From a virus (Duplodnaviria; Heunggongvirae; Uroviricota; Caudoviricetes), in the IMG/VR virus record IMGVR_UViG_3300027777_000022: a DNA stretch of 64,000 bases; one strand, 5' to 3'. The notes beneath the pieces were generated by a model, which ran no database searches, was not told where the DNA came from, and worked only from the letters and a program-made list of their open reading frames with translations. This document shows, one piece after another, positions 3,660-54,169 of the stretch. The position numbers and the translations under genes are program-made. How positions within the stretch are numbered: the first letter of the stretch is position 1; each line of letters opens with the position of its first letter.

Positions 3660-5492
3660 TCAATGGCTGTTTAACATCTGTGCCATCAGTGCCCGACGTT
3701 TCACACGATGCTCGCTCACGGTCTTTGGCACAGGGTCTGCTTTCTTGGGTTCTGGCTTTTTGGGAATTGAGCCGGGAGTTCTTGCCAAGCTGGCATCACT
3801 CTTGGCACGTTGTCGATCCCAGGCCGTGCTCAATCGTTGCGCAGCACTTGTACGTGCTTCCGCCACACCTTGCTCTGACACTACCAAGACCTTATCAATA
3901 TGTCGTTTGGCAGCCGCCAGCGTGGTAAATTTTTTAGCACTGGAACTGATACCCCATTGACTTGGTCCTTCCTGTGTTATACCATAACCCTTGTATGTTC
4001 CTTTTTTACCCACAAAAGTATCAGGATTATATTCACCCTCCGCCACACCTTCAGGACTAGCATTTGCTCTAGCTTGTTCTTTGGTAGGATGCCATCCTTC
4101 TCTCTGGGCCTGTGCCACCTGTCTAGGATAGATAGATGCTGTGTACATTTTGGTACCTATCTTCTTGTACCAGTCAGTTGGGTCTAGGTCATGACGCTCA
4201 TCGTCACCGCGATTGAATCTACCACCTGTACCACGGAATGGACGATGACCTTCAGACATGCCTTGCGACTCATTTTGTGCTGCTGGATTGGATATTTTTG
4301 CCGCTGCTTTTGTTCGGGCGATTGTCATCCAGTTGGTTTGCTGTCTACTATCCATTGGTTGACCACGTTCGGCAACCATTTGATCGTAAATTGATTTAGT
4401 AAGGGCATTTATATCTGGAATTTGTTGTATGCGAGGATCATCTCGACGCATATTTAAAAGATCAGATGTTGTATCTTCGGCCATTCCTTGCTCAGGTTGA
4501 ACAATCCAATGATAAAAATATTTATAATTGTCAGGGGTTACACGTACACCAGTGTTTGTGTAATCTGTCTCAAGAGCAAAAATATGTGGGGCGACTTTTC
4601 TCAAACGATCACCAGTATCAAAGATATCATAAAACTTGTTTTTAATAAGTTTGGTTGCGTCAGCTAGACTATTAACGTTGCCTAGATCTTGTGCAACTCC
4701 ATCAGGCTCAACAAATATAACTTTGTAATTCCTGGCATCTTGGCGAGCTTCCTCTACATCTTGCTGTTTACGCCGTTTGGCATAGTCAGTGTTGGCAGGA
4801 TTCTTTTTGTTCTTGGCAGGTGCTCGAGTACCAGCAATACGTTCTTCTTCACTCTTGCGACGTGTGAAATAATCATTGGCAGCAGAGCCTTCCGCCACAC
4901 CTTCCTTATACAATGCTAGTCGCTTCTGCTCGTGGGCAATACTTTGTTGTATAGCAGCCTTGTCGGCATTGGGTTGTTTGAGTTGTGCTTGTAATCTTTC
5001 TATAGCGGCTTTAATAGCAGCCACATCCTTTTGATCACGCTTGCTCAAGCCTTCCGCCACACCTTGCTCGGGATGATGCCCCATTAGCCGCATCATGGTA
5101 CGAACATGCACACGGTCTTTTTCTTTTTCATCTTCGGGCAAATCATCATATGGCACATGCTGTGCTGCATTCCAATCGCCTTTGGGGTTGCGCTTCATCC
5201 ACTCGTTGTGAACGTGTTCGGCTGCTTTTTCCATGTCACGGCCAAAATGTTTCACAGCATGATGAGCAGCATGTGCTGCTGCTAGATTTTCTTTTTTCCA
5301 GTCTGGATGCAACTTCTCAAACGGCACATTGATATCACCTTCGGTACCATCACTATTCTTTTTCACACGTGGCTTTGTACCTGTGGGGTCAAAGTTCCTG
5401 CGCCATTCTTCATGTGCATTGCTAGCAAACTGTGTTATGGGATCCATTTGGGATTCAAAAATGGGCCGGGTAAAAAGGTTATCAATGATCAT
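3660..5492 (-). CDS. modular putative internal head polyprotein with N-terminal tandem RyR-like repeats and repeated (Q/E)G(V/M)(A/S)E junctions
   Basis: HEEW..VPFEKLHPDWK and HNEW..VPYDDLPEDEKEKDR (RyR-domain pattern); six QGVAEG-like motifs separate the modules. Confidence 0.6.
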   Translation of the reverse strand: MIIDNLFTRPIFESQMDPITQFASNAHEEWRRNFDPTGTKPRVKKNSDGTEGDINVPFEKLHPDWKKENLAAAHAAHHAVKHFGRDMEKAAEHVHNEWMKRNPKGDWNAAQHVPYDDLPEDEKEKDRVHVRTMMRLMGHHPEQGVAEGLSKRDQKDVAAIKAAIERLQAQLKQPNADKAAIQQSIAHEQKRLALYKEGVAEGSAANDYFTRRKSEEERIAGTRAPAKNKKNPANTDYAKRRKQQDVEEARQDARNYKVIFVEPDGVAQDLGNVNSLADATKLIKNKFYDIFDTGDRLRKVAPHIFALETDYTNTGVRVTPDNYKYFYHWIVQPEQGMAEDTTSDLLNMRRDDPRIQQIPDINALTKSIYDQMVAERGQPMDSRQQTNWMTIARTKAAAKISNPAAQNESQGMSEGHRPFRGTGGRFNRGDDERHDLDPTDWYKKIGTKMYTASIYPRQVAQAQREGWHPTKEQARANASPEGVAEGEYNPDTFVGKKGTYKGYGITQEGPSQWGISSSAKKFTTLAAAKRHIDKVLVVSEQGVAEARTSAAQRLSTAWDRQRAKSDASLARTPGSIPKKPEPKKADPVPKTVSEHRVKRRALMAQMLNSH

Positions 5493-6593: not shown

Positions 6594-6768
6594 GCTTGTT
6601 CCTTTTGTATTCCTTGGGCGTGTTAGGCGTCGGGTCCGTTGTGTATTTACCACTAAGCATAGAACCGCCCGATCTTGTTTGCATGCCCAAGGGTTGAACC
6701 ATCACAGCCACAGATCCAGTGCCTGAGCTGCCACTGCTTGCATCTTCCATTATTTCATGTACTTTCAT
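6556..6768 (-). CDS. small putative internal head peptide (leader MKVHEIME)
   Basis: Short acidic leader ending in E, then a Gly/Ser-rich and a basic segment. Confidence 0.5.
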   Translation of the reverse strand: MKVHEIMEDASSGSSGTGSVAVMVQPLGMQTRSGGSMLSGKYTTDPTPNTPKEYKRNKHARGQFKNTPGN

Positions 6769-7630: not shown

Positions 7631-8281
7631 TTATGCCATTTGTGTGGCAGGTGCCAACGCTGCGGCCATGGCCATGCGTTTTTGTCTTGCTTGCCCATTG
7701 CTGCGCTCGTAGTAATGATCCACAATGGCAGCAGCATCCTTGGCTGTTTTTGCACCTTTCAATGCTTGCCCTGCTTGTGATTCTGTGTTGTTCAATTCCC
7801 ATTGCACAAATTCTAATTGGTCTTGCAAGCTGGAACCTTGCAATGGTTTACGCATTTCTTTAGCAAAATCTTGTTGTCGTGATCCGCGCCATTGTGCAAT
7901 TCCATATGCTTGCTCTTTGGGATTTAGTGCAGCAGGGTTGAGATTTTGTCCTGATTCAGTTTGTAAGTTAGCTACCAGGCCAGCAGCTTGTTCGGGTGAC
8001 CATCCTTGCTGAACAAAGTAGTCCAGGGCAATTTTTGCATTGCCTGATGAACCGCCTTGGCCTGCAGATCCAGTTGATGATCTAGCCATATTGGATCCAG
8101 GCAATCTTATCTGAGATCCAGGCTGGATATCACTGGCATTGGAAAACTGTGGGTTCTGCCACATGATGCCATCTATTGTGGTATCGTTGGCCCGAGCTAT
8201 GCTCTGCAAGGAATCCCCGGATCTCACGGTATAGATATTGCTCGAGCCGGTGGCTTCGGACAAGAACTCAAATGACTTCAT
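7631..8281 (-). CDS. LysM + phage tail-lysozyme-like peptidoglycan hydrolase with capsid-targeting-like leader
   Basis: YTVRSGDSLQSIAR...IQPGSQIRLP (LysM); QAAGLVANLQTESG..LNP...AYGIAQW (Phage_lysozyme2); leader MKSFEFLSE. Confidence 0.85.
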   Translation of the reverse strand: MKSFEFLSEATGSSNIYTVRSGDSLQSIARANDTTIDGIMWQNPQFSNASDIQPGSQIRLPGSNMARSSTGSAGQGGSSGNAKIALDYFVQQGWSPEQAAGLVANLQTESGQNLNPAALNPKEQAYGIAQWRGSRQQDFAKEMRKPLQGSSLQDQLEFVQWELNNTESQAGQALKGAKTAKDAAAIVDHYYERSNGQARQKRMAMAAALAPATQMA

Positions 8282-8282
8282 G

Positions 8283-9110
8283 TTAGCCTTTTAACATGTT
8301 TGATAAACGACGCATGCGATCCACGCTTTCTTCAAAGTCTCTGCGATCTGCATTTGTTGCACCGCCTGTTACAGGTGCTGCTGGTGCTTTAGGCGCTGCC
8401 GGTGCCGCTGGTGCTTTAGGCGCTGCTGGGGATGTTCCTCCTGCAGGTATTCCTAATCTTGCTCTACCTTGATCAATCAAAGATGGGCCTGTAGCTAATC
8501 GTTGGCTAACTGATTGTTTTGTTGGATCTACAGCAGGAGTAGCTGCTTGTTGTACTGCACCTGGTGCAGGTCGCGACAATCTAGCAGTTTCTGCTGATGA
8601 CTGATTGGGTGCTGCTGCTGCTTTTTGTGCTGCTTGAGTAGCTGGCCCCATGATACCGTCGGCTTTGATCTTGTAACCTTTGGCAATAAGATCTTGCTGT
8701 ATTTTCAACACTGCTGGATCAGACCGGCGCCCGGATGTTTGTTGCCCGGGACGGGCAGGTAATTTCACTGGTGCTGCTGCTTGTGCTGTTTGTGCAGGAT
8801 CTTGGCTCATTGGATTTGCAGCAGGTATATTTGGTGCTGCTGGTGCTGCTGGTGCTGCTGGGGGCACAAAAGGATTGGCGTATACATCATCACTGTCATC
8901 CATTGAATTCACTGGCGCCGGTACACCCTGACCAGCTTGTTGTGCCGGATCTCGTGCCATGTTGCTAGCAGCGCCAGTTTGTGGTGCCCCAGCAAAGAAA
9001 TTTTTAATTCCTTGAAGATTCTTTTGACCTTGAGCTTGTTGTGCAGCATATTCAGCATCGGTCATTGGCTCTCCTGGACCTGCTTCTCTAATAAATTCTG
9101 TTGATCTCAT
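8283..9110 (-). CDS. Ala/Pro/Gln-rich protein with a peptidoglycan-binding domain and capsid-targeting-like leader
   Basis: VLKIQQDLIAKGY..KADGIMGPATQAA (PG_binding_1 pattern); leader MRSTEFIRE. Confidence 0.7.
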   Translation of the reverse strand: MRSTEFIREAGPGEPMTDAEYAAQQAQGQKNLQGIKNFFAGAPQTGAASNMARDPAQQAGQGVPAPVNSMDDSDDVYANPFVPPAAPAAPAAPNIPAANPMSQDPAQTAQAAAPVKLPARPGQQTSGRRSDPAVLKIQQDLIAKGYKIKADGIMGPATQAAQKAAAAPNQSSAETARLSRPAPGAVQQAATPAVDPTKQSVSQRLATGPSLIDQGRARLGIPAGGTSPAAPKAPAAPAAPKAPAAPVTGGATNADRRDFEESVDRMRRLSNMLKG

Positions 9111-9140
9111 GTGATGTTCCTTTATGAATGATCTATGCTT

Positions 9141-9146
9141 TATTTA
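9141..9146 (-). promoter_or_regulatory. T4-type late promoter core (TAAATA)
   Basis: TAAATA 30 nt upstream of the 9110 start, with AAGGAA RBS in between. Confidence 0.55.
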
Positions 9147-9148
9147 TT

Positions 9149-9352
9149 CTATTTGCCTTGTGCTGCTAATCTAGCACCATTGTTAAAACTGTTGCTGTGA
9201 CTCATTGCATTCCTGTTGCCACGTGCTTTGCTCCAGGCATATCCAGCTCTGTGGCCAGAACAATCTTTGGTGCAAGGAGATCCCAAGAAGCTCAGTTCGT
9301 CCAGTTCCTGGTGTTCGGGCTTTTTCTTGCGGGTGAATTCTCTTGCTCTCAT
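9149..9352 (-). CDS. small basic putative internal head peptide
   Basis: Leader MRAREF...ELDE, then LSFLGSPCTKDCSGHRAGYAW. Confidence 0.6.
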   Translation of the reverse strand: MRAREFTRKKKPEHQELDELSFLGSPCTKDCSGHRAGYAWSKARGNRNAMSHSNSFNNGARLAAQGK

Positions 9353-9828
9353 TTGGCATCTCCAAAGATAGGTCCACTCACATACTGCCCATTTTGACTC
9401 AATATGCCATTGCGCAAATTCTCAATGATACCATCTGTAATATCTCTGCGTCGAAAGTGTGGCAAAAAGACATGTGTTTCTACCGGTTGATCACCTTGCT
9501 CGTCCAAGATAGCATACATTCTGTGACGGCCGTCATGATCACGAACCCGGGCTTCTAGACTAAAGTCATCTGACTCCCAAGCTTCGGGCACCACAACAGT
9601 CAAGAATGGAGCACCAAAGCCTGGATCATTGATGTGTTTTCTCAAGTGCTGTATAGTCTCTTGCTCGTCGGGTGAGTTCTTGTCCAAGGGTAAACTCAGC
9701 TTCAAAAACATACTGGGCCGCATGACCACTTGCAGGCCAAAGTAATTCACATCTGCATTGTGTGGCACTGCACCCAGACCTTGCCGGTTGTTTATCTTTA
9801 GTTCTGTAATAAATTCAGTTGCTCTCAT
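9349..9828 (-). CDS. ParB/Srx-like domain protein with capsid-targeting-like leader
   Basis: DHDGRHRMYAI (ParB-type DGxHR); leader MRATEFITE; ATGA coupling. Confidence 0.6.
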   Translation of the reverse strand: MRATEFITELKINNRQGLGAVPHNADVNYFGLQVVMRPSMFLKLSLPLDKNSPDEQETIQHLRKHINDPGFGAPFLTVVVPEAWESDDFSLEARVRDHDGRHRMYAILDEQGDQPVETHVFLPHFRRRDITDGIIENLRNGILSQNGQYVSGPIFGDAK

Positions 9829-10622
9829 GCGCCGCTCCAAGTTGCGTATAGTCCAGAATTAAATCTACCACTGCCGTATATTTTGCTCATATAAGTTTTA
9901 ACATAGGCTTCTAATTCTTGTCCAGTTGTTGTGGGCTGTACATCAAATGTAAAAAATCGTTCTCCATCTTTAGATGAGCCAAGATATTCTCCACCCAGTT
10001 GGCCCATGACTGTGTCAATATTACGAGAAGTTAGATCATAATGTTCTAAACCAACATACCCTTTCATTTCAACACCGGGTATACTGGCAAGGCTGACCCA
10101 ATTTTTACGGCCACCGGGTGTTTGGGAAAGACCGGCAACCAGTGGCAATTTCATGATAGTTAATACAATACCATACAATGCTGTGGCAATTCCCTGCCCT
10201 CTATAATCTTCATCAACAGTGATAGTATCAACTCTTACTGCATCAGGTAACGGAAAATTGTGATATCCGGTTTTTGCCGGTGTGGTTAAAAGTTTACCAA
10301 TCAATTGTCCAGGAGTTTGTAATGCTCGTTTATTAGCATGATTCCAATATTGAACTCTTTCGTTATATGACCCGTCTGATTCTCGAGGTTTTCTAACTGG
10401 CGGCGTTTGTGTAGCATTGATATAATCCGGTCCTTTTGGATCCCATATTTGTATATCGGTACCATACTGTCCAGGTCCTATAGTGTATAAGAATCCACTG
10501 CCCCCGGGCAATTTTTTTGTAACATCAGATTTAAACTGTGTGGGAACATATAGTGATTTTTTTCCACCTTGATATTCTCCAGCTGGAATTTTTTCAATAG
10601 TTTCAAACTCCGTTGCTCTCAT
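9825..10622 (-). CDS. GNAT-like acetyltransferase with capsid-targeting-like leader
   Basis: VDTITVDEDYRGQGIATALY (acetyl-CoA-binding motif A); leader MRATEF..IE. Confidence 0.7.
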   Translation of the reverse strand: MRATEFETIEKIPAGEYQGGKKSLYVPTQFKSDVTKKLPGGSGFLYTIGPGQYGTDIQIWDPKGPDYINATQTPPVRKPRESDGSYNERVQYWNHANKRALQTPGQLIGKLLTTPAKTGYHNFPLPDAVRVDTITVDEDYRGQGIATALYGIVLTIMKLPLVAGLSQTPGGRKNWVSLASIPGVEMKGYVGLEHYDLTSRNIDTVMGQLGGEYLGSSKDGERFFTFDVQPTTTGQELEAYVKTYMSKIYGSGRFNSGLYATWSGA

Positions 10623-11704
10623 CAGCAGTTCCACTTTCTCAGTGCCAAGGCCTTGCGGGTGGGTTTGCCATTGGGCTTCTTCATTGGACCTTTGACTCCG
10701 CCCATTCTAGCACAAAAACTCTTGCGGCGTTTGGCTGCTTTTGAGCCGGGCTTGAGTTTTGAGGGCTTGGTGGTCACTGCCATCTGCAAGTGACTGCCTG
10801 GATGCTCTCTGCGGTAACTGGCCACACCTTTGGCATTAAGACCGCCTTTTTTGCTCTTGCCTGCACTTCTACGCCAGGCTGCTGTTTCATACAGTTCATG
10901 ATCATCCACAGCTTCAAAATCTTCCCAGATTTCATCAGCATCCACACCATGTGCTTCGGCCAGTTCCATAACCATTTCTTCAATGATATCAAACTGTTGA
11001 TCAGCGTTGAGATCTTCTGTGATAGTCCCTGCGGCTTCTTCTCGGGCTTTCTTGAATCCTTTGCCTGGGACCCAACCTGCGATGGGTTTACACTTGCATG
11101 AATCACCGGGGCACTTGCAGTTGATCATGCCGCATTGCATGCAGCGTTTTCCTTCGCTTTCTGCCACACTTTCATTCTTGGCAGTCTTGGCTGCATCTCT
11201 CCATGCTTGTGCAGTAGGTGCTTTGGGACTGCTGGCATCTCTACTGGTACCTGCAGCCTTGCGCTTGTTCACATTGTAGTACAGGCCATGTTTGGCAGCT
11301 TCGTCCATTGCTTTTTTCTTTTTCTTGGCTATGGCAATAGCGGCTTGTTGTGCTGCATTAGCAGCTTCGTCTACACTTTCATTTGGCACACAGTTACGTA
11401 CTTGTCCGCCATTTTTGCCTGTCTTGGTACCTTCAGCATGTTTGCCAGGCCAGCACTTGGTAACACCATTTGCGTCCTTGGCACCTTTGGCAATCTCAAT
11501 GAGATTGCCGTGTGTTTGACACATGCCACAGTCTTCGCAGACCATTTCCATCTCAACTGACTCATTGTGTTTCTTCTTGCCAGCGCAATGTGCTCGTTGG
11601 CTGAAACCTTTAGGATGTGAGCAGTTGATACTGCTCTTGTATTTTTGGCTCCACTTTTCCTCCAAGCGGCGGGTGGTTTCTGTAATAAATTCACTTGATT
11701 TCAT
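10622..11704 (-). CDS. polyprotein of short basic/Cys-rich peptides separated by x-x-E sites (putative internal head protein)
   Basis: Leader MKSSEFITE; modules KWSQKYK..CSHPKGFSQRAHC, KCWPG..VRNCVP, CMQCG..CKCPGDSCKC, AAW.R..GK...GGLN.KG...RRKSFCARM. Confidence 0.6.
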   Translation of the reverse strand: MKSSEFITETTRRLEEKWSQKYKSSINCSHPKGFSQRAHCAGKKKHNESVEMEMVCEDCGMCQTHGNLIEIAKGAKDANGVTKCWPGKHAEGTKTGKNGGQVRNCVPNESVDEAANAAQQAAIAIAKKKKKAMDEAAKHGLYYNVNKRKAAGTSRDASSPKAPTAQAWRDAAKTAKNESVAESEGKRCMQCGMINCKCPGDSCKCKPIAGWVPGKGFKKAREEAAGTITEDLNADQQFDIIEEMVMELAEAHGVDADEIWEDFEAVDDHELYETAAWRRSAGKSKKGGLNAKGVASYRREHPGSHLQMAVTTKPSKLKPGSKAAKRRKSFCARMGGVKGPMKKPNGKPTRKALALRKWNC

Positions 11705-12795
11705 GATGCTTTCTTCTTTCCTGATTTCATGTTGGCCATCCAATGTGCCAATTGTGCAGCCCGGCCTGAGTGGCTCTTGGCATATTTACGCAGATTGCTT
11801 ACTGATGATTTGGTAGGAACACCTAGACGTTTTGAGTCGCCTTTGTCTTCAGGGTGTTTACCGTCGGCAAAGTTTTCATCAACCGAAGGCTCACTGGGAG
11901 TTGCAGGTTTCTCAGCAGCTTGCTTGGCTTTGAAGATAGCATCCCATTTGTCGGAGATAGCATTCTTCAATTCCAGTGTGGATTTAAAATCGTTGTCTTG
12001 CATGTACTTAATTATCCAAACTGCACTAGCACGGTCTCCTGAATCGGGCTTGCGAGCATTGCTGAGATCCACACTGAGATTTTGATCTTCATGTGCATTA
12101 CCATAGTACCGCATGGTCTTTAATGCACGTTTTGCTCGTTCACTTAGATGCGCTTCGTCGTTCTTGGTAATCAACTCAATCCAAGGCTTCACAAAGTCTG
12201 TGGGCTTGCGAGAATATCCAGCCGGTTGCGGTCCACGCAACACTTCACGAGCTTGTGCAGGTGTTTTTGCTCGACGTTTGTCCAGCAAGCGCCAGGCAGC
12301 TTCGTCTGTGTAGAAAAACACAGGCAAGCCTTGTTGTTTGGCTGTGATCAGGATTTGTCGTGTTTCTGGACTGCGATATTCATTTTGTTCTTTCAGCAAC
12401 ACATGAACTTCAGTCACAGGAGTGATTGGAATAGTAGGCTCTTTGCTGAACACACGGTCTTCTGATTCTCTTGTTCTTGTGCCATTGCTGTGCAGCCAAG
12501 AACGTTCCCAGTAGTCGATGGGTTTAACAATGTAACGAGAGTTAAACCAGTCGCCGTTGAGCTTGAACATCACAGCACCTGATCCCACCCAGCGATGATA
12601 GTCTCCAGTTATGGTTCGTGTTAGACTAAGAAAGTACGGATAGCCAGGTGGAGCATACTGTTCTTCACTCCTGGTACCAGTCACGCTGGCCAATTCAAAG
12701 TTACCTGATTGCAGTATTTTTAGACCAGCTCTGATACCAGTGTAATGAAACAATACGTCAGTTGCTCGTTCAATTAAAAATTCATTTGCTCTCAT
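11701..12795 (-). CDS. putative ADP-ribosyltransferase-fold protein with capsid-targeting-like leader and a basic C-terminal module
   Basis: LFHYT..LKILQSG, FLSLTR, RESEDR match the H / S-x-T / E-x-E ART layout; leader MRANEFLIE; VDE junction before the C-terminal peptide. Confidence 0.5.
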   Translation of the reverse strand: MRANEFLIERATDVLFHYTGIRAGLKILQSGNFELASVTGTRSEEQYAPPGYPYFLSLTRTITGDYHRWVGSGAVMFKLNGDWFNSRYIVKPIDYWERSWLHSNGTRTRESEDRVFSKEPTIPITPVTEVHVLLKEQNEYRSPETRQILITAKQQGLPVFFYTDEAAWRLLDKRRAKTPAQAREVLRGPQPAGYSRKPTDFVKPWIELITKNDEAHLSERAKRALKTMRYYGNAHEDQNLSVDLSNARKPDSGDRASAVWIIKYMQDNDFKSTLELKNAISDKWDAIFKAKQAAEKPATPSEPSVDENFADGKHPEDKGDSKRLGVPTKSSVSNLRKYAKSHSGRAAQLAHWMANMKSGKKKAS

Positions 12796-15700
12796 TATAC
12801 ATACCTTGCTAATTCATCTTCACCTAAATCTCGTATACGTTCTGGAGGAATGTTAGTTGTGGAGAAGTACCATCCCTGATCATATGTTAATGGAATACCT
12901 GTCACATCAATTTTCAACAATGTTAAAGGATCATCGCTGCCCTCTGTCTTGGCATACATCCAGCCACCAACCATACTTAGTTCTCTTTGTAACTTGGTTT
13001 TGTCACCTTCGTCCACTACCATGAATGCTTTGCCATCATAAGGGTCTAGTCCACCATATAGAATTTCTTCTGCGTTTTCAGTGCTGGTAATATGGTACGC
13101 AGTTTTGAATTTATGATCCGGATGGTGTGTTCTTTCTTCGGCTAGATCGTTTTGTTCCCATACACGGACATCTTCACCTTTGTGCTTGTTCCAGAAACCT
13201 GAACCTGCATCAGTTTGATCCCAGCTTCGTTGTATTGTATAACCTTTGCTTTTGACAAAATCATACATTATTCGAGCAATACCTTGACTTCGAAATTTGT
13301 CCTTGATAAACAAATCCCGCGGATATAGTTCTTTGCTATCGTCAAGGTCAAATACAACATGTCCTAGTTCATTGTTTCCGGTTGGATCAAGAGCATTCAC
13401 AAACAGTTGGCCGCTGTCGGCAACTATTCTAAATTTTAATCCTTCAAAATCTTCTAGTGGATGTTGTTTGCGTTCAGATATGGGTTCCCACTGCATTGCT
13501 TTACTGCCTTTGACAGCAGGCTTGAAGCCTTGACCTCGGTAGAACTTGGTCAGTTTGCTTTGACTCACTTGTCCTTTGTCCCACGGGAACAATGTAAGAC
13601 TAATACCATCTTCACGGGCCATTGCTTGTAGTTCTTTCATTGCTTTAGAACCAACGCCTTGGCGTAATGGATATGCTTGGAACCATTTGACTTCGACTGC
13701 ACCTCGCTTACTGAAGCTAGGTATTAGTTCAAACATAGCAAACTGTTGTTCATCACCCTTGCCCCAAACCATGACATGATTGTTCTGCATGGTATATGGA
13801 TACCGTGCGTAAACTCGTTCAATGAACGCTCGTGCTGCATTGTTGTTGCCTAGATTGATTCTTATCGGTTCTTCTTCGACTTCGTGTATCTTGTTCCAGA
13901 ACAATCGGCCATCTGCTGTTTGGCTATCGCTAGGCACAATGTCTAGCCCAAGAACATGCCTAGCATGTTTGTACATAGCACTGCCAATGCCTTGTCTACG
14001 CAGTCGTTCTGGCACATGAACCATGGCAGCTTTGACTTTACCGTTGCTGAGTCGCTGAAATCTCACCCATCCTACTTCTTTGCCATCACGGTAAGCATAC
14101 ACTTGCATACCACCGGTGCTGGTGGGTTCAGATCGTATTTCTATATTGCCATCAGCATCTTCTGCCACATCTTTCATCAAGTGTTTGGCATCACCGGACT
14201 TCTTCCAAGCCGCCCACATGGCTTTTCCAGGTGGTAATTGATTTTTACTTGGTACAATAGTGTTGCCCAACATTCTAACATACGCATAGATGTTGCGTGC
14301 AATACCTTGCCCTTGATATTCAGGGCGGAAACTGGTGATCAACGACACCACACCTTTTTTGCTTTGTTTGAATTTGGAAATACCCACTTGCTGGAAGTTG
14401 TCATCTAGAACCTTGATTGTGAGTACTGGTTTGCCATATTCTTCTTGTACTGTGGCGCGATACGTCAACCCATCAAAGTGTTGAGTATCATTGAATGCCG
14501 GATCAAAACAATCTGGATTGACAGTTTCATTTAGTTCATTGGCCACGACCTGTGGCAGGAAACTGGCAGCTATGTCTTGACAAGTGTTGAAAATGTCAGC
14601 GTTGTCTGTGACCTGTAGATTAAACGGATAATCTTCAGCGGGCTGCTGTGTGGGGTCTTGCCAACCAGCATAGCATTTTTCAATGCCATAGTCACTCAAC
14701 AACTCAGTACAACTTTCACCATCACGCTCAGTCATGTGATTTACACAAGGACTCAATGTGGTAACCATGATAGCATTGGGGCCAATACGTCCATGACGTT
14801 TTAAATGTTTATCTATGGCCATGCGTTCAGCATGGCGGCGTGTACCATTGGGGCCAGGCATGTTGATAGCATAAGTGTGATTGTTTTTGTTGTCAATCAA
14901 ACAAGCAGCCACGCCCCCGTACTTTTTGGGATTGATTTGCTTGCCACGATGGATCATGCTAATACATTTTTTTAATACCGAGTCCAGTTTGTGAAGTTTA
15001 GTAATTTCTCGGCTTTCACTCACTGGTTGAGCACTCTGTCTTACTGAGAAGTTACTAGCATCTATTGTTGGATCTGTCTGCATTGCAGTGGCCACCCATT
15101 CTTGACCTTTACGCCAGGCTTCGGCTTGATCAGCTGCTCGCATCACAAATACTGGTTGGTTACTAGATCTATTGTATACTTCCCACTGTGTTTGTGCCAT
15201 TGGAATATCTATTTCAATGTCTTGCACTCCGGGAATTGGAGTAGGTGGTGGATAATATGGAGGATTTGTGGAGTTGCTCATAGCTGCATTGCGCAAATGA
15301 TTTGCTGCTGATGGGGCTGCATCAGCGGCCATGCTGGCTGCTGCTAATGCTGCCTGGCGTGCGGGACCCCAGCGGGCTAGAGATTGCGCGCGGCCTGGAA
15401 TAGCCGCAGGAACAACATCAAATTGCTCTCGATAATCATCTAAATCATGGTCAATCAACCATAGTCGTGCTGCTAGGTTGGCATCTCTTTGCACATTTGT
15501 GTCCCAGAAAGTATGCACAGTTTCGCCATTACTATTAATAATGTTCCATTGCATACTACCGGCTTCGGGTTCTGCTGGTGCAGTAGAGTTGGCTGCAGGA
15601 ACAATATCCCATGGGCCACGGCCAGCATGATGACTCAGGCGCTGGCTCCAAATCCATGATCTGCCTGCTTGGTTGGCATCTGATTGCGCATTTGTGTTCC

Positions 15701-18700
15701 GGAAAGTATGCACAACATTTCCGTCGGCATCCACAATGTTCCATTGCACATTGCCGGGTTCGGGTGCTGCTTGTGCAGTGGTTGGCTCTATTTCACGAAC
15801 TTCTGCATCTGCTCGCATTCTTGGATTACTTGCACGAGTCTGGGTGAGGAATTGTTCAGCAGCTTCTTGGCTAGAGAATCTTCTCAACGGAACTGGTTCC
15901 CCCGCAGAATATTCTCCAGGCATACGTGAAAATTGATTTACTGACCCAAGCCAAATACCCCAGTTGCCTTGGTTAACTTCCCCTGGTGCCGTAGCAAGGT
16001 CTTTATACATGGTATCCAGTTCAGCTTGTTTGGCTGCTTTGTTACCACGCACCAGTTGTGCTTGACGTATAAAACTCTTGAGTGCAGCCTTGGGCAGTTC
16101 GCCAGCAGCGTACTTTGCAAAGATAGCTAGAGGATCTGTCTCGCCCTTGGGTGCCAACATCTTGTACAGCTTCTTGAGATACTCTTGTCGGTATGCTTCG
16201 GGATTCAACGCAGCACTCATGGCCACTGTGAATCGCATCAAGGTGTTTTCAATCTTTTCAAAGTTGTCATCCAACCAGTCACCACCGGGGCTGCGAAATT
16301 CAATGTGTCCATCCTTGGTGTTGATTGATGTGTACTTGTCTGTGATGCCCGAATGTATGGCCTTGGTAGCTAACTGATCCATGCCTGACTTCATTTTGTC
16401 TAGTATTTGTTTGGCATTCTCTGGAGTTACCTTGCCTCGGATCTTGCCCATTGCACTTCTTGCATAGGTGTTGCTGGCACGGCCGAAGTTATTCAACACA
16501 TATTCGTCGCCCATGAGCAGGGCCAGTTTCACATAATCCAGTCGGTCTATACTGTAGTTGGGTACACTAATGTTGATGTGCAAGCCAGTTGAGTTATTGG
16601 TGTAGCAACCTGTTTTGTCTGCCCAGGCTTTGACCTTTTTCAAGTCACTCATGATGTCATCTATAGGCAAGGGCGGGCTCACAAACTCCAAGCCCGAATC
16701 GTCAGAATCATCGGGCTGTAAGCTGCCGTCAGGTTCTACCACATAGAAGTTCTTGCCCGGGCCCGGACGCTCTTGACCATATGCATGATAATCACTTCTT
16801 GCTTGTGCAGGGCGACCCACTGCATGACTGAAATCGTCTGCTATGTCTTGAACGCTGGTGTCACCGCCACCACTGGTATAGTGTGGCCAATGGACCATGC
16901 TATCGTAACGATTATGGATGCCACTCATGGTGTCTAGGTCATTGTCTTGTAAAAATTCTTCAAAATGGTCATCATCAAGAAACTCCTCCTGAGATGACTC
17001 TCGAGCATCCTCATACCAAGGAGACATTTGTTCAGTGACAATCATGTCCGCGGCCAGTTGATATTCTTTTTTGGTAATATCGTCGTCTGGTTCTAGATCC
17101 AGCAACTGTCTGATTTCGTCGTCGTCGATATTTTCTTTGATATATTCGTAGATGAATTGTTCGGCGTCCGAATCCCAACGACTGTCAAAATGTTCCACTT
17201 GCCAATCACTGTAATCTTCCATTATCCGATCAATCAGACTATCAACACTTCTGCGACTGTTGTAATCACCGTCATAAAAAAAGTCTCGGATGTCGTATGC
17301 GCTGCTGGCTGATTGATCCTGATCCCAGTCGGGCTCTAGTTCCTGATCCTCTGATGAAGTGTTGGGCACAATCATTTCAAATTCCATGCCAGCGATGGCA
17401 CCGGTCTTGGCAGCTTCTTTACGCAGACTCTTGCCGCCCATGTTGATTTCAAACAGGTCTTGCTCTTTGAACTCACGCAACAACTTGTTTAGGCCTGCTG
17501 TGAGCAAAGCAGGATGTCCTTGGCTATCTGTTTCTAATCCCAGCTTGTTGGCTTCCTTGCCCACAGCACCGGGACGCACATCCCGGGTCAGTGCCATAAC
17601 AAATCGTGGATCTTTGGATTGCTTCTTTGTGGGGATATAACCCGAAGCTTCTTCCAGCGTGGCACCATCAAACATACCGGGCTGCTCTTGTGCCCAGTCT
17701 CTCATGATACGTCCAGCTTGAGCGTTGGCTTGATCTTCCCAAGGGCTACCTGTTTCACCAGCATTGTCGGGCAAAGGATTGCGTTCATCCTGCTGACGAT
17801 GTGTCATTTCATGAGCCATGGTGCGAAGTATATCCAACACATGACGATCAGCAGTGGCCAAGATCAAGGTGTTGGTTTCCGGCTCGTACTGTCCAAAGCT
17901 ACCATTTTGTTGACTCCATGCAGGAGTTGTTTCTAGGCGCAGTCGGGGCGGGTTCTTTAACTGTAGCTTATCAATGCAATTGTTGTAGAAACGCTGTATG
18001 ATCTTTTTAAGCTGATCTGGATCTGCACCTTCATCCACTTGTTCTGCTTCAGTGCCTGCTGGATGATCTTGGCCAGCATACGCAGTACCTGGATACCAGT
18101 AATCACGCATGCCATAATTCATTTTCTTTCTAGGCGCAGGTTTGCGTGTCAAACTCAGTTCACGATCTTGTATTGATGTTTTGGCTTTTTTCAGCTTGGT
18201 CAAGCAGCCGGAATTCCTCAACAGTTTGAATGCAATGTTCTCGCAACCAAACTCGCCGTTCTGTTCCAGGCCAGTTTGACGCATTGTTCGGATCTTTTCC
18301 CACAGTCGATTCACAGCATCTGCATCACCTGACCGGATAGCTTCGTGTATTCTGGCATCAAGATCAGCTGTTTTGTGCTGCACACATGAGTCATCTATTG
18401 TGGCGCGGCGGCGCTGCGGAACTTGTGTCCAGTCACCGTTCTTTACACTGTAGATACCTTGACTCACATGCTTTTGATCACTGGGCTGTACATACAGTTC
18501 TACCGGAACGCCGGCAATCTTTATGTTGTGTTCGGCGTTGTACTGATATTTCTTGGCTGCAAACAATTCCTGATACACAGGATCGTCGGGAATGTCTACC
18601 ACAAGGTGTAGATCAATGTCAGAATTGGGAGTATAACTATAGGCAGCATTGCTACCTGATATGGTAATGTCCTGAATGTTGAGTTCATCAACACCCAGGA

Positions 18701-18848
18701 ATTCTTGAAAATCTGATGCAATTGCCAACAACTTGTCACGCACTTCAGGCAACAAGTGTTCGTCCTTGCCCCACAAACGGGGGTTCAGACGTTGATGGAA
18801 TTTTACGGCATCTGCGAGATTGTAGTTGTCAAGATCATGAAAGTTCAT
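12795..18848 (-). CDS. 2017-aa phage polyvalent protein: PolB-type nucleotidyltransferase, HExxH metallopeptidase, COOH-NH2 amidoligase, Zn deaminase, 4x GNAT, ART/Tpt1-like domain
   Basis: SGSN..DIDLH; AHEMTH; GMEFE/EPDGS/GLEFVSP/TGLHIN/IEFRSPGG; HAE..LSPC..C; QGQGIA, RRQGIG, RQGVG, RSQGIA; YHITS..EEIL..GL.P. Confidence 0.8.
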   Translation of the reverse strand: MNFHDLDNYNLADAVKFHQRLNPRLWGKDEHLLPEVRDKLLAIASDFQEFLGVDELNIQDITISGSNAAYSYTPNSDIDLHLVVDIPDDPVYQELFAAKKYQYNAEHNIKIAGVPVELYVQPSDQKHVSQGIYSVKNGDWTQVPQRRRATIDDSCVQHKTADLDARIHEAIRSGDADAVNRLWEKIRTMRQTGLEQNGEFGCENIAFKLLRNSGCLTKLKKAKTSIQDRELSLTRKPAPRKKMNYGMRDYWYPGTAYAGQDHPAGTEAEQVDEGADPDQLKKIIQRFYNNCIDKLQLKNPPRLRLETTPAWSQQNGSFGQYEPETNTLILATADRHVLDILRTMAHEMTHRQQDERNPLPDNAGETGSPWEDQANAQAGRIMRDWAQEQPGMFDGATLEEASGYIPTKKQSKDPRFVMALTRDVRPGAVGKEANKLGLETDSQGHPALLTAGLNKLLREFKEQDLFEINMGGKSLRKEAAKTGAIAGMEFEMIVPNTSSEDQELEPDWDQDQSASSAYDIRDFFYDGDYNSRRSVDSLIDRIMEDYSDWQVEHFDSRWDSDAEQFIYEYIKENIDDDEIRQLLDLEPDDDITKKEYQLAADMIVTEQMSPWYEDARESSQEEFLDDDHFEEFLQDNDLDTMSGIHNRYDSMVHWPHYTSGGGDTSVQDIADDFSHAVGRPAQARSDYHAYGQERPGPGKNFYVVEPDGSLQPDDSDDSGLEFVSPPLPIDDIMSDLKKVKAWADKTGCYTNNSTGLHINISVPNYSIDRLDYVKLALLMGDEYVLNNFGRASNTYARSAMGKIRGKVTPENAKQILDKMKSGMDQLATKAIHSGITDKYTSINTKDGHIEFRSPGGDWLDDNFEKIENTLMRFTVAMSAALNPEAYRQEYLKKLYKMLAPKGETDPLAIFAKYAAGELPKAALKSFIRQAQLVRGNKAAKQAELDTMYKDLATAPGEVNQGNWGIWLGSVNQFSRMPGEYSAGEPVPLRRFSSQEAAEQFLTQTRASNPRMRADAEVREIEPTTAQAAPEPGNVQWNIVDADGNVVHTFRNTNAQSDANQAGRSWIWSQRLSHHAGRGPWDIVPAANSTAPAEPEAGSMQWNIINSNGETVHTFWDTNVQRDANLAARLWLIDHDLDDYREQFDVVPAAIPGRAQSLARWGPARQAALAAASMAADAAPSAANHLRNAAMSNSTNPPYYPPPTPIPGVQDIEIDIPMAQTQWEVYNRSSNQPVFVMRAADQAEAWRKGQEWVATAMQTDPTIDASNFSVRQSAQPVSESREITKLHKLDSVLKKCISMIHRGKQINPKKYGGVAACLIDNKNNHTYAINMPGPNGTRRHAERMAIDKHLKRHGRIGPNAIMVTTLSPCVNHMTERDGESCTELLSDYGIEKCYAGWQDPTQQPAEDYPFNLQVTDNADIFNTCQDIAASFLPQVVANELNETVNPDCFDPAFNDTQHFDGLTYRATVQEEYGKPVLTIKVLDDNFQQVGISKFKQSKKGVVSLITSFRPEYQGQGIARNIYAYVRMLGNTIVPSKNQLPPGKAMWAAWKKSGDAKHLMKDVAEDADGNIEIRSEPTSTGGMQVYAYRDGKEVGWVRFQRLSNGKVKAAMVHVPERLRRQGIGSAMYKHARHVLGLDIVPSDSQTADGRLFWNKIHEVEEEPIRINLGNNNAARAFIERVYARYPYTMQNNHVMVWGKGDEQQFAMFELIPSFSKRGAVEVKWFQAYPLRQGVGSKAMKELQAMAREDGISLTLFPWDKGQVSQSKLTKFYRGQGFKPAVKGSKAMQWEPISERKQHPLEDFEGLKFRIVADSGQLFVNALDPTGNNELGHVVFDLDDSKELYPRDLFIKDKFRSQGIARIMYDFVKSKGYTIQRSWDQTDAGSGFWNKHKGEDVRVWEQNDLAEERTHHPDHKFKTAYHITSTENAEEILYGGLDPYDGKAFMVVDEGDKTKLQRELSMVGGWMYAKTEGSDDPLTLLKIDVTGIPLTYDQGWYFSTTNIPPERIRDLGEDELARYV

Positions 18849-18924: not shown

Positions 18925-19485
18925 ATGATATTTACCAAAAGTTGCCCACCTAGCGGTTTCTATGTATACGCATATCTTCGTAATGACGGTACACCGTATT
19001 ACATCGGTAAAGGAAAAAATAAAAGAGCATGGGATAGAGCCCATAGTGTTGTAGTCCCATTGGATCAAAACAGAATTATAACTTTAGAAACAGGTCTCTC
19101 AGAGATAGGTGCGTTAGCTATAGAACGCAGAATGATTGCTTGGTATGGTCGAAAAGATTGCAATACAGGTATTCTAAGAAACAAAACTGAGGGAGGGGAA
19201 GGCCCATCATCTGCTGACAGATTAGGAAACAAAAATCCCATGTTTGGTAGAAAACAAAGCGCAGAATCTAATAGAATACGTCGAGAAAAATCTTTAGGTA
19301 GGATAGTTACAGAAGAAACACGACAGAAATCATCAGACGCTCTCATTGGCAAAAGAAATGGAAAAGATAATCCCATGTTTGGTAGGAAACATTCTGCTGA
19401 AACTGTAGAGAAAATACGTGAGGCAAAAAAAGGAAAGATTCCTTGGAACAAAGGAAAAACTTACAATCTTAAAAAAAGCCCCTAA
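18925..19485 (+). mobile_element. free-standing GIY-YIG homing endonuclease with NUMOD3 repeats (Seg-like), opposite in orientation to the flanking genes
   Basis: FYVYAYL...PYYIGKG..R; repeated KNPMFGRKQS/DNPMFGRKHS..E..KI; RBS AAGGAG. Confidence 0.85.
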
Positions 19486-19494
19486 GGGCTTTTC
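19471..19494 (-). terminator. rho-independent terminator (probably bidirectional)
   Basis: AAAAGCCC-CTAA-GGGCTTTT hairpin with a U7 tail on the minus strand; the endonuclease stop codon lies in the loop. Confidence 0.75.
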
Positions 19495-20446: not shown

Positions 20447-21406
20447 TTAACGGAGTATAGCAGGCTGGTAGAATTTCCACGACCTTGCTTCGTCCAAATA
20501 ATCTTCAGCAATGGGCTGGTTGTACTTGCTTTGATAGCTGGCTCGCATGCCGCCTTGGCTCATTTGACGTGTGACTTCTTCGTCGACACTTTGATCCAAC
20601 ATATTTGGTAAGCCTTGTGCCTTACGAGCCATATGACGGGCCCAATCTACTTTTTCATCATCAACAGTATCAACTAACTCAGCCATCTTTTTTGCAATTA
20701 AATTGTGTGCTGTTGATGGTTTATATTTTTTCATATTCAACTTTTTAGCAACATTAAGATAAAGTTGTAAATCATTGCTATCATCGCCACCATTGAAATC
20801 ACCTCGAGCAAACTCATTTAAGTTTTCTGCACCCATAGCAGTATCCAACATCTTGACCACTGTGTTGGCCAATTTAGGGTTCTTCTGTGTGTTGGGATAT
20901 AGACTCATGACCAATGCAGTGCGCTGGCGTTCTGTCAACGACGGCCATGCTGTGCGTATCTGTGTGGCTGAAGTCATACCTGGCCCAAACTCCACCGTGG
21001 GCAAGTAAGCCATGTATGCGTGTTGAGTCATGGGTGCCATTTGATCCGAGATGGGTTGCAAGTATGACAGTGTGCCATCACGTTTGATACCACCAGGTTG
21101 TGGGGGCTTTGTGGCGTCTTTCTCTGAACGCACAAAAATCAACTGTGTGTCTGCAGGATTGTAACTGCGTGTGATTTCTTCTGCACGGAATGGTGATTTA
21201 ACTTGATAGAAGTCTCCTGGAGGAACTCCGGCCAACTGTGCTAGCTTTTCTTTTAGTCGGAAAGGAAAAGGGCGAGTTGAAGTGTCGTTGGTTGCAGCCA
21301 CTTTGACATCAGCATTGGGAAATGCTTGAGTAGCAGAATTATACAGTGCTAAATGGCCTGCGTGAAAAGGATGAAATCCACCAGGCATGATTACTAATTG
21401 TTTCAT
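20447..21406 (-). CDS. HIGH-motif nucleotidyl/cytidylyltransferase-like protein with extra C-terminal modules
   Basis: MPGGFHPFHAGH; SATQIR (KMSKS-like); LNE, VDE and IAE junctions in the C-terminal part. Confidence 0.7.
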   Translation of the reverse strand: MKQLVIMPGGFHPFHAGHLALYNSATQAFPNADVKVAATNDTSTRPFPFRLKEKLAQLAGVPPGDFYQVKSPFRAEEITRSYNPADTQLIFVRSEKDATKPPQPGGIKRDGTLSYLQPISDQMAPMTQHAYMAYLPTVEFGPGMTSATQIRTAWPSLTERQRTALVMSLYPNTQKNPKLANTVVKMLDTAMGAENLNEFARGDFNGGDDSNDLQLYLNVAKKLNMKKYKPSTAHNLIAKKMAELVDTVDDEKVDWARHMARKAQGLPNMLDQSVDEEVTRQMSQGGMRASYQSKYNQPIAEDYLDEARSWKFYQPAILR

Positions 21407-54116: not shown

Positions 54117-54169
54117 AGATACATATCCTCTGGTGTATTTACCAGAGCTGCGTATCTATGTCTATCAGT

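Follow-up and report, generated by a model that had tools for sequence, protein, structure and literature searches.

A 2017-residue polyvalent protein of an uncultured T4-related jumbo phage, with enzyme modules exchanged at candidate prohead-protease sites

The DNA examined here is a stretch of 64,000 nt (hereafter the window, whose positions serve as coordinates throughout) of the IMG/VR virus record IMGVR_UViG_3300027777_000022, and its source is an uncultured T4-related jumbo (giant) phage. On the minus strand, at positions 12795..18848, lies P0001, an uninterrupted open reading frame (ORF) of 2017 aa with an ATG start; the position and length given in a first-pass annotation of this DNA were verified. 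The protein can be read as one chain of about ten autonomous modules, among them a nucleotidyltransferase (NTase), a zincin, an amidoligase, a deaminase and four GNAT-like domains, linked by joints that are short and exposed, read [L/I/V/M]-x-Glu and are usually followed by a small or polar residue. Homologs gain and lose modules at these joints, which are very probably functional protease sites. The complete chain of events, in which P0001 would be a cargo polyprotein, cut in the head by a gp21-type protease and delivered with the DNA, is on balance probable. The observations on which this reading is built are the motif itself, its position in linkers, its conservation, the exchange of modules at it, the intact catalytic residues of the enzymes, a gp21-type protease in related genomes and the leader-bearing neighbour genes.

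The gain and loss of modules at the joints is the strongest evidence, and, as far as sequence comparison reaches, the decisive one. When P0001 was compared with 120 homologs by BLASTP, the alignments were found to break at query positions 273/274, 400-402, 1276-1278, 1436-1445, 1563-1567 and 1789-1792, i.e. exactly at junctions marked in the first-pass annotation. Paired high-scoring segment pairs (HSPs) often share some query residues at the break, since the motif stands on both flanks of an insert. Indeed, [LIVM]-x-E, with a small or polar residue after it, was seen on either side of every inserted module, as in ..VDE↓AVGG with ITE↓SVDPD, ..LEE↓SAHD with MSE↓ASGYIP, and ..VDE↓GERK with INE↓ASS (the arrow marks the joint, after the Glu at P1).

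An anchor analysis was conducted on 143 distinct family proteins, with module starts chosen blind to the motif. Upstream of a module starting with NFADG, 34 distinct 8-mers were found, with Glu at P1 in 34/34 and Leu, Ile, Val or Met at P3 in 33/34, P2 and P4-P8 being variable. The deaminase module has 23 distinct upstream contexts, of which 23 have Glu at P1 and 22 have one of the same four residues at P3. Taken together, the two module starts show a P1 Glu in 57/57 distinct contexts. As for the SGYIP module, the motif was upstream in 40/40 of the contexts listed, out of 47 distinct ones. This sharper analysis superseded an all-vs-all breakpoint scan with fuzzy HSP ends, in which the motif lay within 12 residues of 54% of the breakpoints vs. 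25% of random positions. The NFADG module, with the consensus NFADG(K/R)xPxDKGDSKR, is small and basic and occurs 79 times in the family; its settings include the C-terminal bead of the polyprotein, the tail of the gene at 11701-12795, after SVDE↓, and a 64-aa leader gene.

Conservation of the joint motif among homologs amounts to 75% at residue 273, 100% at 400 and 467, 82-100% at 1278, 59-77% at 1441 and 89-95% at 1563; at DLAE↓1904, five of six homologs have [LV]-x-E and the sixth has IKE. Copies of [LIVM]-x-E inside domains are mostly conserved in at most 25% of the homologs, the exceptions being two buried copies at 35 and 705, the latter followed by Pro. Recombination at DNA repeats was considered as a source of the joints and rejected: the repeats found correspond to a small-domain duplication and to GNAT motif A, and none coincides with a joint. 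As no DNA repeat stands at any joint, the constraint acts on the protein.

The first-pass annotation had described the joints as x-x-E punctuation. Its nine sites are present, with P1 Glu at 273, 400, 467, 1278, 1441, 1563, 1659, 1792 and 1905, but a bare x-x-E is uninformative, because the protein holds 129 Glu; the informative form is [LIVM]-x-E. Eight of the nine sites are of the type [L/I/V]-x-E. The ninth lies one residue away from such a site, and the joint that had been placed at LAEE↓ is better read as DLAE↓ at residue 1904. The whole protein contains 29 [LIVM]-x-E tripeptides, which is near the composition-based expectation, so that the signal is one of location and not of number. All eight inter-enzyme linkers (214 aa in total) contain at least one [LIVM]-x-E, for which the chance is 2.5e-5 with random placement and 5e-5 in the shuffled protein.

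Two AlphaFold2 models, built on alignments of 73 and 45 rows, bear out the expectation that the sites fall in linkers, since each of the nine is situated within, or borders on, an inter-domain segment whose predicted local distance difference test (pLDDT) score is below 50. Site 273 lies with segment 231-276, sites 400 and 467 with segment 394-469, site 1278 with 1274-1281, site 1441 with 1432-1440, site 1563 with 1550-1567, site 1659 with 1655-1667, site 1792 with 1779-1785, and site 1904/1905 with the segment from 1877 onward.

Domains were assigned by means of Pfam (on the whole protein and on ten segments), NCBIfam, PHROGs, the two AlphaFold2 models and Foldseek. The order proposed earlier from the N- to the C-terminus (NTase, HExxH peptidase, amidoligase, repeats, deaminase, four GNAT domains) was recovered, except for a last domain called as ADP-ribosyltransferase (ART)/Tpt1-like. 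All the modules described below are on the minus strand. For the 1000-residue model of the N-terminal half, all Foldseek matches were weak (E>0.01) and served as consistency checks only.

Module 1 (18030..18848, residues 1-273) is probably a Pol-beta-type NTase, and ends with EQVDE↓273 in linker 231-276. The domain proper covers residues 1-230, with a GS..DID motif at residues 65-79, and G65, S66, D77, D79 and E117 are invariant in the 73-row homolog alignment. Pfam NTP_transf_2 matches with E=0.0015 (19.3 bits, just below the cut-off of 21) and PHROG 36119 with E=1e-44; the weak Foldseek matches are to CdnE (a CD-NTase) and to the ANT(9)/AadA aminoglycoside nucleotidyltransferases. The pairing of the NTase with a cytidylyltransferase-like gene (20447-21406 in the window) is shared with Synechococcus phage S-CRM01 (g125-g127, locus L092), where the NTase is a stand-alone protein of 242 aa among replication and nucleotide-metabolism genes.

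Module 2 (17649..18029, residues 274-400), which ends with TLEE↓400, is a small HExxH gluzincin-like metallopeptidase. Its domain of about 120 aa (residues 277-393) matches DUF6782 (E=1e-4), and H346, E347, H350 and E371 are invariant in 73 homologs. By Foldseek it resembles the minigluzincins abylysin, selecase and jannalysin, with probabilities of 0.9-1.0 but weak E-values.

Between TLEE↓400 and DLFE↓467 stands module 3 (17448..17648, residues 401-467), a nearly invariant peptide of 67 aa, so that these two sites, which do exist as annotated, delimit a conserved module rather than a plain linker. Searches of Pfam and NCBIfam with it gave no family match, and AlphaFold2 gave no confident fold. 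It stays with the amidoligase where homologs insert modules behind the zincin, and it is absent from the stand-alone amidoligase of Agrobacterium phage Atu_ph07. It could be an internal targeting sequence or a pro-peptide.

Module 4 (15792..17447, residues 468-1019) is a glutamine-synthetase-like amidoligase (Amidoligase_2, PF12224; 29 bits vs. a Pfam cut-off of 22) with a helical insert and a C-terminal helix. The domain proper spans residues 470-942 and its motifs are invariant, namely ExE at 489-491, EPD at 705-707, H757/N759/S761 and EFR at 850-852; the weak Foldseek matches are to the glutamine synthetase fold.

The amidoligase is followed by three small beta-beta-alpha repeat domains with long Pro/Ala linkers (15015..15791, residues 1020-1278), ending with PVSE↓1278. 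The repeats are of about 50 aa each (about 1034-1084, 1099-1147 and 1220-1271) and have AlphaFold2 pLDDT values of 80-90; two of the three are covered by a 126-nt direct repeat. The [LIVM]-x-E motif does not separate these repeats from each other, and a weakly conserved site was found at residue 1019 (22% of homologs).

Module 5 (14526..15014, residues 1279-1441), ending with ELNE↓1441, is a zinc-dependent deaminase of the CDA fold. Within the domain proper (1282-1431) lie HAE at 1339-1341, with codons exactly where they had been annotated (14826-14834), PC at 1367-1368, and C1380; H1339, E1341, C1368 and C1380 are conserved in at least 90% of homologs, and the two Cys have an unusual spacing, of 11 residues. 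The Pfam match to dCMP_cyt_deam_1 (PF00383) has an E-value of 7e-11 and 42 bits vs. a cut-off of 25, and Foldseek matches RibD, TadA and dCMP deaminases with probability 1.0. A search for stand-alone homologs of the deaminase module gave gene fragments only, on contigs below 3 kb.

Four GNAT-like modules span residues 1445-1877. With sizes of 96-133 aa they are short for GNATs, and all have the acetyl-CoA motif Q/R-x-x-G-x-G/A and fold as alpha/beta domains in the AlphaFold2 models. GNAT-like 1 (module 6; 14160..14525, residues 1442-1563) ends with DVAE↓1563, has weak Pfam GNAT matches (E=0.04-0.07) and the motif YQGQGIA, and is folded in AlphaFold2. GNAT-like 2 (module 7; 13872..14159, residues 1564-1659) is above the Pfam cut-off for Acetyltransf_7 and Acetyltransf_1 and ends with EVEE↓1659, adjoined by IHE↓1656. 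GNAT-like 3 (module 8; 13473..13871, residues 1660-1792) ends with PISE↓1792, and GNAT-like 4 (module 9; 13137..13472, residues 1793-1904) with DLAE↓1904; their Pfam GNAT E-values are 0.006 and 0.007, respectively. In all the assignable enzymes the catalytic residues are intact and conserved, so that, judged by their sequences, they look like working enzymes.

The last module (module 10; 12798..13136, residues 1905-2017) is a conserved C-terminal domain with 90% mean identity among 6 homologs and a pLDDT below 50 in AlphaFold2. The ART/Tpt1-like identity claimed for it was not upheld: Pfam, NCBIfam and PDB profile searches were all negative, with no match in any of the three, and the fold is poor. 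The sole pointer towards an ART consists of language-model (Atlas) neighbours labelled PARP (16%), Tox-ART-HYD1 and Arr-ms, at about 0.9. Pairwise comparison of the domain with a neighbouring putative ART gene and with the YHAT-type modules of homologs revealed no similarity. Gelsolin/villin matches obtained by Foldseek with the C-terminal half model were discarded as artefacts of the repeated alpha/beta domains (rmsd of about 30 Å).

In T4, the gp21 prohead protease cuts after Glu in L/I-X-E. Its substrates include gp22, gp67 and gp68, each with multiple cuts, and Alt, which is shortened from either end; in IPIII, whose capsid targeting sequence (CTS) has ten residues, processing depends on CTS positions 8 and 10 (PMC9026906). 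An alignment-based scan of IMG/VR yielded 80 loci with homologs of P0001, four near-complete genomes among them. A Peptidase_S77/gp21 protein (212-217 aa; E of about 1e-24) is encoded by three of these four: G005 (364 kb, with terminal repeats), G006 (349 kb) and G008 (340 kb). Its gene lies between gp67/68-like and gp22-like genes and beside the Gp23 capsid gene (E of about 1e-98). The Gp23-type capsid proteins of G008, G005 and G006 (loci L088-L090) have [LIVM]-x-E at 7, 19, 34 and 42, the next being at about 389, and the gp22-like scaffold of the same genomes holds 21-24 such sites in 364 aa. The classical gp21 substrates of the lineage thus carry the same tripeptide as the joints. In these relatives, the likely capsid maturation site is YLKE↓NAS.

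The window is syntenic with the relatives, its ClpA-like gene being 71-75% identical and the gene upstream of the polyprotein 73-78%. On the basis of these syntenic relatives, the phage of the window is predicted to have the protease as well. Searches for Peptidase_S77 and Gp23 in the four closest IMG/VR fragments found nothing, which is no evidence of absence, as these are fragments (10-44% complete).

Directly downstream of P0001, a back-to-back array of leader genes (7631..12795, minus strand) was found, with six starts at 12795, 11704, 10622, 9828, 9110 and 8281. The stop codon of P0001 overlaps the ATG at 12795, so that the two genes are translationally coupled. The six leaders read MRANEFLIE, MKSSEFITE, MRATEFETIE, MRATEFITE, MRSTEFIRE and MKSFEFLSE, for comparison with the T4 CTS MKTYQEFIAE (PMC8442874). 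Their common pattern, M-[KR]-x-x-E-F-x(1-3)-E, has six matches in the 64 kb, all of them in the array, and none in 20 shuffled windows. The array is also present behind the homologous gene in L034 (G006), L076 (G008), L006 and L012. Its products in the window include a GNAT, a DUF6321 protein, a PG_binding protein and a LysM+Phage_lysozyme2 protein. The last two (7631-9110, minus strand) both have the CTS-like leader, so that the destination of the cell-wall-acting proteins would seem to be the head and not the tail.

At L006:17981-18175, a 64-aa gene consists of the leader MRAAEFVIDE↓ followed directly by the NFADG module. As this module stands both behind a leader and behind joints, a leader end and an internal joint appear to be interchangeable contexts, which is expected if one enzyme cuts both.

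A virion location was found for one homolog. Protein gp196 of Atu_ph07 (AUZ94978.1, 500 aa) is a stand-alone homolog of the amidoligase, with 33% identity over 252 aa (E=1e-31). Its gene lies two genes from the T4-like portal of a phage that also has a gp21 homolog (gp204). Mass spectrometry of purified virions detected the protein, at 30% coverage from 14 unique peptides (PMC6102473 supplement). At the N-terminus of gp196, a stretch of 13 residues ends with L-T-E and aligns collinearly but weakly with the DLFE↓INMGG joint. The product gp195 of Atu_ph07, annotated as a nucleotidyltransferase, was tried as a homolog of the NTase module and showed no similarity to it.

According to the mechanism proposed here, the polyprotein would be incorporated in the prohead core, or would at least meet the activated protease, and a T4 gp21-type prohead serine protease would cut it after Glu at the joints, i.e. 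after residues 273, 400, 467, 1278, 1441, 1563, 1659 (or 1656), 1792 and 1904, and perhaps 1019. A single translation product would thereby give rise to about ten individual proteins. If T4 Alt and the internal proteins are taken as a guide, cutting would take place in the prohead core and the fragments would be retained in the head; they would then leave it with the DNA and modify host or defence components. The joints and the leader ends having the same grammar, modules could move between stand-alone leader genes and positions in the polyprotein. All of this is predicted: the cuts, the protease that makes them, packaging, ejection and each of the substrates.

Several points weigh against it. 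Using the gp21 proteins of the relatives in tblastn, no protease gene was found in the 64-kb window, though in a fragment of a genome this is no evidence of absence. The fourth near-complete relative, G007 (IMGVR_UViG_3300032268_000986, 342,865 bp, 99% complete), has a homolog of the polyprotein (locus L036) and no Pfam match to Peptidase_S77 or Gp23; possible reasons are a head module of a different type or one that has diverged beyond the reach of these profiles. A search for late promoters identified none for the polyprotein gene of the window, and TATAAATA, CTATATTTA and GTAAATAC are no commoner in the window than in shuffles. The tandem small GNAT modules might act as an uncut pseudo-dimer. 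The NTase module occurs as a stand-alone protein in T4-like cyanophages, among metabolic genes and beside a cytidylyltransferase, which hints at a non-virion ancestry. Finally, P0001 has no N-terminal CTS, its start MNFHDLDNYNL belonging to the conserved NTase domain, and a leaderless polyprotein would need another route into the prohead. T4 Alt, too, is packaged and is not known to have a CTS of the internal-protein type. The trim reported for Alt is one of seven residues (PMC9026906).

The fate of the products is where the first alternative departs. It also has a gp21-type protease cutting the joints, with products that act late in the infected cell or the capsid, for example on phage DNA or virion components, and are not ejected. 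A 2026 bioRxiv preprint (PMC12991175) reports cleavage by T4 gp21 of a cytosolic protein, in a disordered loop with an I/LxE site, a further point against the proposed mechanism, since processing then need not mean packaging. The missing CTS leader would fit such an alternative, as would the pairing of the NTase with a cytidylyltransferase-like gene, here and in S-CRM01, among non-structural genes. It is nevertheless unlikely: the polyprotein gene heads an array of genes with CTS-like leaders, and the amidoligase homolog of Atu_ph07 is in the virion. Moreover, some homologs of the polyprotein bear GH19/LysM, M23 and PG_binding modules; such cell-wall hydrolases make sense only outside the cytoplasm of the producing cell, and fit proteins that leave the capsid at infection.

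Cutting could also be the work of the embedded HExxH zincin, which would act in cis or in trans, either ahead of packaging or once injected. An intact H-E-x-x-H...E zincin does belong to the invariant core shared by more than 1100 homologs, and release of domains by embedded zincin-like peptidases was proposed by Iyer et al. 2017, citing P1 DdrB (PMC5512222). For gp21, however, a specificity for Glu at P1 with a hydrophobic P3 is documented (PMC9026906). This motif is also found at the end of the leaders of neighbours that have no zincin, it fills the capsid propeptide and the scaffold of the relatives, and the stand-alone amidoligase of Atu_ph07 has a leader ending with L-T-E and no zincin. 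We know of no small gluzincin with this specificity, and consider release by the zincin quite improbable. That P0001 works uncut as a multi-enzyme machine, its joints being a preferred linker composition or a by-product of recombination, is very improbable in spite of the uncut transfer of the N4 vRNAP and of some plasmid polyvalent proteins (PMC5512222) and of a tripeptide total (29) close to the compositional expectation, given that dozens of unrelated contexts have just P3 and P1 in common (with P1 Glu in all 57 at two module starts), that recombination homology offers no explanation where no DNA repeat stands at the joints, and that the protease substrates of the lineage itself carry this very motif.

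An extension of the gp21-type cargo reading can be offered tentatively, being itself rather doubtful. The joint and the M-R/K-x-x-E-F-x-x-E leader might be two parts of one plug-and-play grammar, used for cargo in general across a large clade of T4-related jumbo phages; any module could then be loaded either on a gene with a leader or as one bead of a polyprotein, with the head protease as universal releaser and residues 401-467 as an excised internal targeting sequence or pro-peptide that carries the leaderless polyprotein into the prohead. If true, this grammar would be the counterpart, in double-stranded DNA phages, of the polyprotein strategy of RNA viruses, and would give a sequence rule to find head cargo in metagenomes.

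Concerning the rest of the window, it also encodes a collagen-like tail fibre, a second fibre, an endolysin and a holin, a ClpA/B-like ATPase, a clamp loader and a homing endonuclease. A 610-aa ORF (3660-5492, minus strand) starts with MIIDNLFTRPIFE↓S and has about six internal joints, (E)QGVAE↓G or QGMSE↓G; it has the look of another polyprotein, smaller than P0001, with a putative V/M-x-E grammar between unrelated short modules. The QGVAE joint also precedes NFADG modules in homologs.

A homing-endonuclease-like gene (phrog_314/15526; 18925-19485, plus strand) lies between the conserved upstream gene and the ATG of the polyprotein, and a GC-rich hairpin with a T-run (a terminator) at about 19470-19493 belongs to this insertion. 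In relatives without the homing endonuclease, the upstream gene and the polyprotein gene adjoin, and ACGGTAAATAC is conserved 5-10 nt before the polyprotein ATG. GTAAATAC, which resembles the core of the T4 late promoter TATAAATA, is conserved at the same distance of 5-10 nt from this ATG in L006-L036 (positions about 9985-9995). In the window it occurs twice on the minus strand, a count equal to chance: the copy at 54135-54142 is 19-26 nt upstream of the tail-fibre gene 51660-54116, and the one at 6643-6650 is upstream of a Dps-like gene.

The polyprotein gene had no megablast match among 50,697 phage records, and the relatives found in the same records by tblastn cover single modules only. 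These relatives match the N-terminal 233 aa in T4-like cyanophages, Lak phages and Maribacter phages, and the amidoligase module in Atu_ph07. The metagenomic family comprises more than 1100 proteins of 1100-3500 aa, on contigs of up to about 350 kb; its members are common in freshwater and other metagenomes, and none was found in the cultured-phage records searched. The first ~940 residues are common to the members and the remainder differs between homologs. The combination of a deaminase, an amidoligase and four GNATs had been called unusual, which is true in comparison with cultured phages (there is no INPHARED relative), but the NTase-zincin-amidoligase core is widespread in metagenomes (again more than 1100 proteins).

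Among known systems, P0001 is a polyvalent protein by architecture and resembles T4 head cargo by the grammar of its cut sites and its neighbourhood. Polyvalent proteins combine at least two disparate enzyme activities in one phage polypeptide, and P0001 has NTase, zincin, amidoligase, deaminase and GNAT modules. What the cited literature does not contain is a defined cleavage motif between modules, a genome-encoded protease acting in trans, or the exchange of modules at the sites; nor does it describe amidoligase and CDA-type deaminase cargo, and the proposed reading would point to both activities as new in phage cargo. If the joints are cut, tailed phages would use a polyprotein strategy, loading many enzymes into the capsid at a fixed proportion, and cargo sets would evolve through module swaps at protease sites. 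For uncultured T4-related jumbo phages, a sequence rule for injected effectors would then be a hydrophobic P3 and a P1 Glu, in a linker, at a breakpoint of module content.

T4 IPI-III and Alt have the same L/I-x-E site, cut after Glu (PMC9026906), and the T4 CTS M-K-T-Y-Q-E-F-I-A-E is very similar to the leader M-R-A-T-E-F-I-T-E of a downstream neighbour. Alt is, moreover, a head-packaged enzyme that modifies the host and is trimmed at both ends, and the lineage of the window shares homologs of gp21, gp22 and gp23. T4 cargo proteins are, however, single-domain and trimmed once or twice, whereas about nine internal sites would release about ten enzymes from P0001; it also lacks an N-terminal CTS of its own, and Val and Met are common at its P3. 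Atu_ph07 gp196 is comparable as an amidoligase homolog and virion protein of a T4-related jumbo phage with a gp21 homolog, but it is a stand-alone protein of 500 aa, not part of a polyprotein. In the phiKZ group, the cut motif has a small P3 (S/A/G-x-E). Phages phiKZ, 201phi2-1 and SPN3US are similar in that a gp21-related prohead protease makes several cuts, each after a Glu, in their abundant ejection proteins (PMC9026906, PMC5694885, PMC7411985, PMC10052503). They belong to another lineage, cleavage mostly removes propeptides, and the substrates are not chains of recognisable enzymes.

Concerning polyvalent proteins as described by Iyer, Burroughs, Anand, de Souza and Aravind 2017 (PMC5512222), the likeness lies in the disparate enzymes (NTase, GNAT, zincin and possibly ART) within one polypeptide, in the phage origin and in the predicted context of packaging in the head and injection; that paper already likens polyvalent proteins to the polyproteins of RNA viruses. 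It nowhere names an amidoligase, mentions a deaminase only as a fold comparison, and proposes release by embedded zincins without defining a cleavage motif, to which the present reading would be an alternative. In P0001, by contrast, each joint has a defined tripeptide that matches a protease predicted to be encoded elsewhere in the genome, and it is there that modules are exchanged.

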